24,536 nt of DNA. It comes from Fimbriimonadales bacterium. GTDB taxonomy: Bacteria; Armatimonadota; Fimbriimonadia; Fimbriimonadales; ATM1. How positions within the stretch are numbered: position 1 is the stretch's first letter; every line of letters starts with the position of its first letter. A program made the translations under genes and the position numbers. The stretch is taken from assembly GCA_041744215.1 (NCBI GenBank), contig JBGTLG010000024.1, positions 1 through 24,536 of the forward strand, given 5' to 3'. The notes beneath the pieces are model-generated. The model searched no databases, was not told the DNA's origin, and saw only the letters and a list, made by a program, of their open reading frames with translations. Shown here one piece after another: positions 10,653-12,938 of this stretch.

Positions 10653-10834
10653 CTCACACCTCCGGGGCTTCCAGCCCCAAAAGAATTGCTCCCCGTTCAA
10701 CGCCACGGGGCGCTTAACATCAATATAACAGAAAAATAGCGAATCCGGTCATAGATTTTTTGCAAAACTTTGGAGGCACCTACTTGCCCTTTCACCACGT
10801 AATATGTCTGGAAACACCCTTTGGAGGGATGACG

Positions 10835-11731
10835 ATGACCCATAAATTGACTCTAGCTACCTTTCTAACCGGAGTTCTCCTCGGCCTCGGCTGCAACGGG
10901 GACGTCCCAGATACGCCCGATTCCGCGAGGGCCGAGCCGGTGGTGACTTCACCTTCACCCGAGAGTACGGGAGATGCTGTTGAGGCGCCACCGACGGCGG
11001 ACGCAGACACGCAGACACCTGCACCCGCGGATTCCAAGCCAGGAGAAGCTCCGGCAGCAAATGCCCCTCGGGCAAACAACCAGGGCAACCAGCCTCGAAC
11101 CAATCAAGGAGGCGGTGGCGGGAACAACCCTAACCGGGCCCAAGGCGGTGGGGGCGGAGGTTTCCGGGGTGGCGGCGGGATGATCTCGCTGGCTATGCGC
11201 GAGGATGTTCGAAAAGAGATTGGCGTAACGGACGAGCAAGTTGAGAAGCTGCGCGCGAAGTCTCGAGAATTGATGCCGCAGCCTGGAGCTGACGGTCAAC
11301 GGCCAAACGTCGATATGCAGGAGTTAACCAAGAAGATGGAGGCGGCGGTCAAGTCGATACTCACGCCTGCGCAGGTTACTCGCCTGGGTCAACTCCAGCT
11401 GCAGCGAGAGGGACCGACGGCGATGGCGCGCAAGGAAGTGGCCGACAAGGTCGGCTTGCCGGAGGCGACCCGAGCGAAGATCCAAGGGCTCGTTGAGGCC
11501 AACGCGGCCAAGGCTCGTGAGCAGGGCGCATCAAGGCCGGAGAACCAGGAGGAAGCCCAGAAGCGGATGGCCGAAATGCGGGCGAGCCGCGAGAAGCTTC
11601 AATCCGACATCCTCGCTCAGCTGAGTGCGGAGCAAAAGGCCAAGTGGGAGTCGCTCCTGGGCAAGACGTTCACGTTCCAGCAAGGCGGGGGTGGCGGCGG
11701 AGCCGGGCGACCCATCGCTCCGCGCGATTGA
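10835..11731 (+). CDS. Putative lipoprotein with a low-complexity linker and Spy/CpxP-like (LTxxQ-type) helical repeats, 298 aa
   Basis: GGAGGG RBS 6 nt upstream; lipobox-like LGLGC; Pro/Ala/Gly-rich region; VTDEQ, LTPAQ and LSAEQ motifs. Confidence 0.75.
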   Translation: MTHKLTLATFLTGVLLGLGCNGDVPDTPDSARAEPVVTSPSPESTGDAVEAPPTADADTQTPAPADSKPGEAPAANAPRANNQGNQPRTNQGGGGGNNPNRAQGGGGGGFRGGGGMISLAMREDVRKEIGVTDEQVEKLRAKSRELMPQPGADGQRPNVDMQELTKKMEAAVKSILTPAQVTRLGQLQLQREGPTAMARKEVADKVGLPEATRAKIQGLVEANAAKAREQGASRPENQEEAQKRMAEMRASREKLQSDILAQLSAEQKAKWESLLGKTFTFQQGGGGGGAGRPIAPRD

Positions 11732-11741
11732 TGCGAGGCCC

Positions 11742-12938
11742 CTACCTCCAGCCGTAGTGCGAGAAGAACGCCGGTGCGAGCCTCTCTTGGGGGCTCGTGC
11801 CGGCGAGTGAAAAGTAGAACCCTATGGGGTTAGTTGCGAGGTCGTCGCGCCGTTCATTGAACTGAGTCCCGCCCCATCTGGTGCCGGCCGCGACGAGTTC
11901 GAACTGGGTAAAGCGGCCGGAGCCCGTGTCGTACATCGCCTTTCCAAGGAGTTGGAGTTCGTATCCCCGGTTCTGGCGCCCGACAGGCCCTCCCACAGAC
12001 CACACTCCGCTTTGCGCGGCTATGGCCAGGCCCTCGAACCGGAGGAAAAGAGTCGCTCCAGCCCGCGCTCGGATTTCTGCTCGTAGGAATGCGGTTGGGA
12101 GATTTGCGTCTGAAAACGGGCTGGTTTGCCCTCGAACGTTGTCTGCGAGGTGCAAGCGAGCGATACGACGGACTATTGCCTCGGGGACGAGCCGAGTCTG
12201 CCCGGCTTCGTGGATGTTCGGCACGAATGCCTGCATCTCGTCGTATCGGAACCAAGCGAAGTCCTGGTTCCAGGACTTGCCCCGCCAACCCGATACGTCG
12301 ACCTCGCGCGGCAGGTCGTGGGAGATGACGCGAAGCGCCATCCCGTCTCGCGGGTAGTAGTCTTCGCCCCGGTCGACCTGCGCGCGGGCGAAGATCGGGT
12401 CTTCGGGCAGAAGTCTCTCCGACTTCGGGATTGCCGCCCACGCCGCCAAGGCCTTTTCGAGTACCTCAGCAACTCGTGTGGGGTCGTTGCTGTTGATGGA
12501 GCCAAGGTGGATTCCGGACGGAGTCAGAACGTAGGTGCCTTGGCGTGTGGCAGGGTGGTCTCTGGAAAAGCTCTTTTCGGCGACTTTCTGGAACAGCAGG
12601 CTATCTGGATGCGAACTGCGCTGGAGCCGGCCGACGTCGTCGGCAGCTGAAACGAACTCTTTCGCGAGTTCGATATTCTTAGGATCGGTCCAGACCAACT
12701 GTCTGTTTATGACGCCGTTGTTTCACGTACAGGCGAGGGGGTGGCCGTTCATCACCCAGAGCAGGATCGGCTTGTCCTGCTGTTGGGCGTAGACGACGGC
12801 CGTCCAGAGATCGGCGACCCAAGGAATCTTCTGCGCGCTTTCGGTGAGGGCGGGCGGGATGATTTGGGCCTTGATCTCCTCATACGTAGCGTCGGTCAGC
12901 ACGACAGTCTGGCTGAGGGCCAAGATAGCTGCAAGCAT
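11742..12938 (-). CDS. Putative selenoprotein: thioredoxin-like domain with a C-T-U motif plus an uncharacterised C-terminal domain, 398 aa with UGA readthrough
   Basis: ORFs 12723-12938 and 11742-12698 are in the same frame, separated by one TGA (12725-12723) and 8 sense codons: DKPILLWVMNGHPLACT-U-NNGVINRQLVWTDP. A hairpin follows the UGA. Confidence 0.75.
12686..12717 (-). promoter_or_regulatory. Putative bacterial SECIS element
   Basis: After the UGA: GUC-auaaa-CAGAC-AGUUG-GUCUG-GAC. Upper stem CAGAC/GUCUG, lower pairing GUC/GAC, 5-nt loop with G at position 2, and 22 nt between the UGA and the loop. Confidence 0.6.

Follow-up and report, generated by a model that had tools for sequence, protein, structure and literature searches.

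In this study we describe a gene of a Fimbriimonadales bacterium (assembly GCA_041744215.1, contig JBGTLG010000024.1) which current annotation divides into two pieces and which very probably is one conserved selenoprotein gene read by standard bacterial decoding. The DNA analysed, referred to here as the window, is 24,536 nt long, and the gene lies on its minus strand from 12938 to 11742. Judging from the comparison with related loci, the apparent stop codon TGA at 12725-12723 almost certainly encodes selenocysteine (Sec). The joined read-through protein, P0001, contains the Sec as residue 72 within an N-terminal thioredoxin-like domain, which is followed by a large beta-rich domain. Throughout the text, P-numbers denote database proteins, L-numbers loci and G-numbers genomes, G000 being the genome of the window itself.

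The listing of open reading frames (ORFs) shows two ORFs in a single frame of the minus strand, one of 71 amino acids (12938..12723) and one of 318 amino acids (12698..11742), the latter initiated by TTG. If TGA is taken as U, 12938..11742 translates into 398 residues, among which U72 is the sole recoded codon. A first-pass annotation of this DNA had proposed the same single frame, broken only by this TGA and coding for 398 amino acids, with the local context ...LLWVMNGHPLACT-U-NNGVINRQLVW...; in our translation the context reads ...KPILLWVMNGHPLACT-U-NNGVINRQLVWTDP.... Moreover, it had argued that the downstream half would need a TTG start and that standard annotation would split the gene into hypothetical proteins, and both points were borne out. 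The TTG is located inside the loop of a hairpin (see below) and is not conserved, most relatives having TCT or TCC there, and 117 of the 120 listed homologues span the part after the TGA alone. In GenBank, entries for the family are truncated 'hypothetical proteins'. Relatives match the whole length of the gene with exactly one in-frame TGA and without frameshifts.

The main support for Sec comes from the conservation of this codon. The first-pass annotation had suggested examining homologues for an aligned TGA or a Cys with conservation on both sides, which would favour a selenoprotein, and for TAA, TAG or varied non-Cys residues, which would speak against it. A six-frame search over 401 genomes of the same phylum (Armatimonadota) returned a match in 43 genomes, and in 39 of these a match holds an in-frame TGA. 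After translation and alignment, 29 of 30 loci had their Sec in one common column, with the motif MNGHPL-x-C-T-U-NNG or variants of it; the exception, L045, has Ser at the Sec site and has lost the partner Cys. A further set carries Sec in four of six loci, namely two more paralogues in G000 (L052, C14:27295-28449, and L053, C2:33814-34929) and two in G386. The scan of GTDB species revealed TGA at the aligned codon in all of 80 loci, among which at least six of the first 30 recur. These 80 loci belong to Armatimonadota (Fimbriimonadales, Chthonomonadales) and Planctomycetota (Gemmataceae, Isosphaeraceae, Pirellulaceae, Rohdeia mirabilis Pla163 and others) and, outside those two phyla, include single metagenome-assembled genomes labelled Verrucomicrobiota and Alcaligenaceae. 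More distant paralogues likewise have U in the motif in 20 of 20 cases (18 in the column and two shifted by one residue), with the variants G-C-U-Q-N-G, C-G-U-N-N-A, R-C-U-G and R-C-U-V. Neither TAA nor TAG was found at the Sec codon in any of these locus sets, and the alignments show conserved residues on both flanks of it. The nearest relative of the window copy, L057, shares 77% identity with it.

Natural Cys forms were detected as well. P0100 has STC at the Sec position, P0129 has RCCGC where L154 has RCUG (aligned by eye), and a distant paralogue in the same genome, L054 (G000:C33:8842-9573), carries C-D-D-C with the second Cys in the Sec column. The C-x-U centre that had been predicted is present as C-T-U in the window copy, whereas in sister branches the Cys stands immediately beside the Sec (C-U).

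Furthermore, the organism has a full bacterial Sec system. The genome G000 (2.68 Mb, 93% complete) encodes selA (471 bits), selB (356 bits) and selD (339 bits) together with a tRNA-Sec (78.4 bits; called SeC with anticodon tca by ARAGORN), all with scores above the curated cut-offs; these are the four components that the first-pass annotation had proposed to look for. The selD gene (C16:75837-76805, L018), located about 6 kb from selA on the same contig, has one in-frame TGA of its own, and therefore the selenophosphate synthetase itself would be a selenoprotein in G000. Across the 401 genomes of the phylum, selA scores above its cut-off in 212 and gives some match in 228. The occurrence of the TGA-bearing homologue follows this distribution: 37 of the 39 genomes with such a homologue have a strong selA match and the other two (92% and 83% complete) a weak one, and among the 173 phylum genomes without a selA match none with a TGA-bearing homologue was found. 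Within the window's own order, Fimbriimonadales, the TGA form is present in 17 of 47 genomes, and all 17 are among the 23 that have selA.

P0001 matches no Pfam or NCBIfam family at E<=1, and a profile search of PDB sequences gave no matches at E<=10. An AlphaFold2 model of the joined protein, based on a 60-sequence alignment, reached a predicted local distance difference test score (pLDDT) of 94 and a predicted template modelling score (pTM) of 0.91. Because U72 sits between strand 58-63 and helix 73-81 in this model, the TGA would fall inside one domain. The best match of this domain in VIA-align is 3f9u_B (Z 13.1, root-mean-square deviation (rmsd) 2.4, 120 residues aligned), followed by 3ph9_B (AGR3; Z 11.8), 2lst (Z 11.3), 2ju5 (DsbH; Z 10.3), 1vrs_D (DsbD-gamma; Z 9.1) and UAS domains (Z 9.1 for 2dlx, and 8.6); 3f9u_B is also the best match in Foldseek (E 4.6e-3). 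On the sequence level, PF13899 (Thioredoxin_7) is recognised only in two of 60 family members, weakly (best E 2.3e-4), and P0001 stays below the gathering threshold. The first-pass annotation had postulated a thioredoxin-like scaffold with the UGA at the redox residues, in agreement with the model, which has a thioredoxin fold and, at the start of the first helix, the Sec in the active-site position of a Thioredoxin_7/DsbD-gamma-like domain. Proteins of this type (3f9u, 1vrs, 2ju5 DsbH, 7tkv, AGR2/AGR3, UAS), to which residues 32-171 can be superposed with Z 13.1-9.1, are exported or luminal redox domains of the endoplasmic reticulum (ER) whose active site, like Sec72, is found where the first helix begins. 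They differ from the window protein in their CxxC centre, in place of which it has C-x-U, and in that it carries the added C-terminal domain.

For the second domain, the earlier description as a large C-terminal domain without known function still holds. Its approximately 210 residues form long antiparallel strands with invariant polar motifs (RDLPR, WNxDxAWF, DNVRGQT and RWGGTQ(F/Y)N), and the searches did not reveal a clear known fold: the best structural match, to small outer-membrane beta-barrels, has Z 6.3 with an rmsd >4, and the best Foldseek E is 0.07. Since this likeness to outer-membrane beta-barrels is below the noise bar, no fold was assigned, which is not to be taken as evidence of a novel fold. 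In a search of the ESM Atlas with the C-terminal part of P0100 alone, all of the three rows shown were bacterial hypothetical clusters.

Downstream of the UGA, the window copy can form the stem-loop CAGAC-AGUUG-GUCUG described in the first-pass annotation, with G at loop position 2 and a spacing of 22 nt between UGA and loop; an optional extension by GTC (12713-12711) and GAC (12690-12688) occurs in the window copy only. This hairpin, which resembles a bacterial Sec insertion sequence (SECIS), is a shortened form (5 bp, loop AGUUG) of a helix of the whole family and is common to the window copy and its nearest relative L057. In an alignment of 83 gap-free sequences around the UGA (A4), 87.7% of the cells of the family helix (columns 19-26/30-37) are paired, compared to 21-45% with slid partners. 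The pair 26-30 is GC in 33, AU in 31, GU in five and other or unpaired in 14 sequences, and column 30 is mostly a synonymous third position of a Ser codon. Codon choice in the 80 GTDB loci points in the same direction. At U+7, within the 5′ arm, 61 of 80 loci encode Arg by AGA or AGG, two codons that make up 6.7% of the 2465 Arg codons gene-wide. Gln-CAG precedes TCT in 28 loci and TCC in none, while Arg-CGG precedes TCC in 19, TCG in seven and TCT in four; gene-wide, TCT accounts for 8.7% of TCN Ser codons. On a tree calculated from the downstream protein, the A-U/G-C state switched at least nine times, and among independent pairs the 3′ base follows in four to five and opposes in none. When a hairpin was defined by a stem of 5 bp or more, a loop of 3-7 nt with G in the first two positions, and a loop start 13-30 nt after the UGA, 21 of 29 Sec loci had one, compared to 17% of other codon positions (18% within the window gene). 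These comparisons among relatives show that selection at the RNA level keeps a hairpin whose start lies 16-19 nt 3′ of the UGA, and SelB would be expected to recognise it as a bacterial SECIS. In one branch (L031, L033, L036-L042), the upstream hairpin is gone and GGUCU-GGUC-AGACC, formed by Val-Trp-Ser-Asp codons, is found about 10 nt further downstream instead; because of this branch, the SECIS position appears to have shifted within the family.

Several results weigh against parts of this picture. The minimum free energy of the window hairpin is -8.7 kcal/mol vs -9.7 +/- 2.8 kcal/mol for synonymous recodings, 60% of which are at least as stable, and for the 45 nt after the UGA in 29 loci the mean z is -0.8 relative to recodings, with only two of 29 at or below 0.05. 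Eight of the 29 Sec loci lack a hairpin under the fixed definition, these belonging to the branch with another one further downstream. With so few independent pairs, a p of 0.05 is out of reach of the sign test, which stays at p ~0.06 (median p 0.0625), and Rfam at gathering thresholds detects nothing in the window. Thus, the support for the hairpin consists of its conservation, the codon bias and one covarying pair in relatives, whereas its stability does not exceed chance. The Sec site itself is occupied by Ser, Asp, Ala or Gly in some homologues. Of these forms, those with Ser and Asp are also without the partner Cys, while the Ala variant P0055 retains it; Asp without Cys is seen in the homologue of G325, a genome with no selA match. 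The varied non-Cys residues that the first-pass annotation would have counted against Sec are represented by a few Ser, Asp and Ala forms.

Two further points of this kind concern export and gene context. The earlier suggestion that the protein is exported stands for relatives: L034 and L154-L156 begin with classical signal peptides, from which their export is clearly predicted. The window copy and its nearest relative begin with MLAA(I/T)L(A/V)LSQ, which lacks a charged n-region, and residues 1-8 have a pLDDT <50 in the model. Because this N-terminus is a short, uncharged hydrophobic stretch, export of the window copy can be called plausible and not more. By eye, the N-termini of L032 (1375-1460) and L035 resemble twin-arginine signals (SRRAVF and TRRCCL), which, if true, would mean that a folded selenoprotein is exported. 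As for gene context, no conserved partner gene was found across the family in 110 loci with crude ORF calling.

What chemistry might the protein carry out? SelB together with Sec-tRNA(Sec) would bind the hairpin, and Sec would be inserted at residue 72. Positioned at the N-terminus of this fold's first helix, the canonical thioredoxin redox site, Sec72 could serve as the attacking selenolate and then form a selenenylsulfide with Cys70 (C-x-U here and C-U in sister branches), and an external reductant would re-reduce the Sec72-Cys70 bond. The protein would be exported and may be a thiol/selenol oxidoreductase or a redox sensor of the cell envelope, with the beta-rich C-terminal domain supplying substrate or partner binding. 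We infer this redox chemistry, the role of Cys70 and that of the C-terminal domain from the features described above. Since Sec is kept in nearly every member, the chemistry would be hard for Cys to replace, in what would be an envelope protein of bacteria from oxic and thermal habitats.

The alternative that survives best, although we regard it as unlikely, accepts a real selenoprotein and sees in it a sensor or binder (of redox state, metal or selenium) that signals or sequesters, and not an oxidoreductase with turnover. It draws on a HMMER search with the thioredoxin-like domains of L154-L156 (the C-U-G/C-U-V branch), which listed 1557 proteins at E<=0.001, of which the best 150 were inspected. 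Among these best matches are proteins of 600-840 amino acids that carry the module C-terminal to another domain: Sigma70_r2/r4 in P0124, P0126, P0130 and P0138, a FecR domain in P0208, and a protein kinase domain in P0157 and P0175. In such fusions the module presumably forms the extracytoplasmic part, and by eye the fused forms show Cys or Gly at the Sec site or lack a thiol there, several of them having Gly or no Cys. Within our main reading, too, such Cys or non-redox relatives of the two-domain module point to envelope redox sensing through their fusion to extracytoplasmic function (ECF) sigma factors, anti-sigma proteins of the FecR type and Ser/Thr kinases. In one lineage an ECF sigma gene is located just upstream. 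The fusions thus suggest an unexplored route of envelope redox sensing. However, the stand-alone forms keep Sec almost always, as is typical of catalytic sites, and the window copy has neither a signalling domain nor a conserved neighbour. Moreover, it was a sister-branch profile (A6), and not the window protein, that retrieved the fusions, and the sensor reading concerns that branch, not the window protein itself.

The remaining alternatives dispute the decoding. Very improbable, in our view, is that a code change or suppression leads to a standard amino acid at the UGA (Trp, Cys or Gly). The database entry for homologue P0006 shows W at the Sec position, as this would predict, probably by a gene caller using another table; yet TGA is an ordinary stop in this DNA, where four of the 12 genes with Pfam support in the window end in it, the Sec machinery is complete, TGA forms co-occur with selA, and natural Cys forms have Cys at this position, the redox site. 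It is scarcely credible that the TGA is a true stop, giving a 71-amino-acid peptide and a separate 318-amino-acid protein from the TTG at 12698. Gene callers do annotate the family in this way, as seen from the many entries for the downstream part, and the hairpin energy is unremarkable. A true stop would, however, break a single thioredoxin fold between strand and helix, it would have to be TGA in every locus set and never TAA or TAG, and it would have to be confined to genomes with a selA match; in addition, the TTG inside the hairpin loop is not conserved. Finally, the chance of a pseudogene or of an assembly or sequencing error in the window copy is negligible, even if just one contig, probably from the source sample, covers the whole stretch identically, since the same TGA codon is present in more than 100 other genomes and in the two G000 paralogues and the gene is conserved at full length without frameshifts.

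Metagenomic contigs of other organisms, from four metagenomes, cover the motif and have no listed difference at 12723-12725, while no same-strain contig from other samples spans the TGA. Among the sequencing runs listed for this DNA, none is of RNA. The 70 nt at 12709-12778, which encode LLW-MNGHPL-C-T-U, are the only part of the window matched by many short foreign contigs, which stem from four hot-spring metagenome runs of one study. Because of these matches, several carriers of the family seem to share a hot-spring habitat.

The conserved selenoprotein gene that we favour over these alternatives belongs to a family which is uncatalogued in current selenoprotein lists. A recent inventory of prokaryotic selenoproteins (May 2026) gives 119 families with model identifiers (PMC13188914, Table 1), and the window family has no counterpart among them according to their Pfam/NCBIfam models at E<=1, families with cd or PTHR identifiers only not being directly scanned. 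In the literature, with supplements outside the scope (including S9 of PMC4807772, which covers Planctomycetes selenoprotein candidates and may bear on novelty), we found no description of the family or of bacterial relatives of selenoprotein N (SelN). By score, the nearest catalogued family is VPGUxxT (NF041382/NF041383; OS_HP5 in PMC13188914, Table 1), and this through relatives only. Its members are bacterial thioredoxin-like selenoproteins of similar length, with weak N-terminal similarity to L155, L156, L032 and P0129 (E 0.001-0.02), but the scores of these relatives, 14-19 bits, are below the cut-offs of 275-350, P0001 gives no match, and the motif is VPGU instead of C-T-U. Other catalogued families share the Cys-Sec spacing C-x-U (PMC13188914, Table 1), but none of their Pfam/NCBIfam models matches P0001 at E<=1. 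Because public annotation cuts the family into hypothetical pieces, the selenoproteomes of Armatimonadota and Planctomycetota appear to be undercounted; G000 alone holds three such TGA-bearing genes.

The possible local resemblance to eukaryotic SelN noted in the first-pass annotation gained one independent lead from a feature search of the ESM Atlas with the Cys homologue P0100, in which a 'Selenoprotein N' cluster ranked second (score 0.91, 193/256 features). This eukaryotic cluster stood between two Planctomycetota clusters. SELENON also seems to share G at U+3, R at U+7 and V at U+10 with the family. Among the best 150 of the 1557 HMMER matches, the 20 proteins looked up by name and the 12 scanned with Pfam were bacterial or unnamed; SELENON may rank lower in that list, so that this result has no bearing on the relation.

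According to PMC12839072 and PMC10650576, the Sec of SelN is part of an SCUG sequence in a thioredoxin-like domain on the luminal side. In both families the Sec domain would face an extracytoplasmic compartment, the ER lumen for SelN and probably the envelope for the window protein, and a Cys is beside or near the Sec, in SelN within SCUG (PMC12839072) and in sister branches of the window family as C-U-G, C-U-V or C-U-Q. Replacement of the Sec almost never occurs in either family, as PMC7539508 reports for SelN of algae. Moreover, the UGA of the SELENON mRNA is immediately followed by a hairpin, the Sec redefinition element (SRE), which resembles a bacterial SECIS in the account given in PMC12936836. 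There are also differences. The window protein has C-T-U as its motif and lacks an EF-hand or a type II membrane anchor (no Pfam hit and a hydrophobic N-terminus of 10 residues). In addition, its thioredoxin-like domain is N-terminal and followed by the 210-residue beta domain, whereas the Sec of SelN is near the C-terminus, at position 458 or 462 in the numbering given in PMC12839072.

Taking both sides together, we consider the chances roughly even that the window family and the C-U-G/C-U-V branches are a bacterial arm of the selenoprotein N family, that is, an ancient extracytoplasmic redox sensor or reductase module, made up of the Sec-bearing thioredoxin-like domain and the beta domain, which bacteria would also couple to ECF sigma factors and kinases and whose Sec domain was inherited or acquired by eukaryotes. 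On such a bacterial origin, the SRE hairpin of SELENON could be a relic of a bacterial SECIS. If the link to SelN is true, Rohdeia mirabilis Pla163 (L128), which is cultivable, would offer a tractable system in which to study the chemistry of a protein tied to human myopathy, and the biochemical function of SELENON, still called "enigmatic" in a 2026 review (PMC12936836), would become testable in bacteria.

The coordinates of the gene and its elements are compiled in the following table.

Table 1. Features of the selenoprotein gene and its product in the window.
Feature	Position	Strand	Details and basis
Selenoprotein gene	12938..11742	-	ATG at 12938, TAG at 11744-11742; 398 amino acids, Sec is residue 72
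UGA selenocysteine codon (U72)	12725-12723	-	aligned TGA in related loci
Cys70 codon TGT, likely Sec partner (C-T-U)	12729..12731	-	motif alignments
SECIS-like hairpin	12688..12713	-	5-bp stem CAGAC (12705-12701)/GTCTG (12695-12691), loop AGUUG (AGTTG, 12700-12696)
Thioredoxin-like domain, residues about 32-175, Thioredoxin_7/DsbD-gamma/AGR/UAS type	12414..12845	-	VIA-align, Foldseek
C-terminal beta-rich domain, about residues 190-398	11745..12371	-	conserved columns; models alone with pLDDT 94.3
Short hydrophobic N-terminus MLAAILALSQ, may be an atypical signal peptide	12909..12938	-	translation; nearest relative alike

In the window, the gene stands alone. On one side motA/motB are divergent, and on the other side a convergent low-complexity gene (10760-11731, plus strand) encodes a protein of 323 amino acids with a hydrophobic N-terminal segment and long Gly/Asn/Gln-rich runs, for which no Pfam family was found. 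ARAGORN detected no tRNA in the window. Among the 110 family loci, no cluster of neighbours occurs in more than 11, and the largest one looks like an overlapping spurious ORF. Some neighbours are bound to single lineages, namely a serine carboxypeptidase in six loci and, in eight loci, an ECF sigma gene together with a gene for 598 amino acids. The latter arrangement is seen at L118:336-2926 and seven related loci of one Planctomycetota lineage, where the ECF-type sigma gene and the 598-amino-acid gene, which has no Pfam match, lie directly upstream on the same strand.

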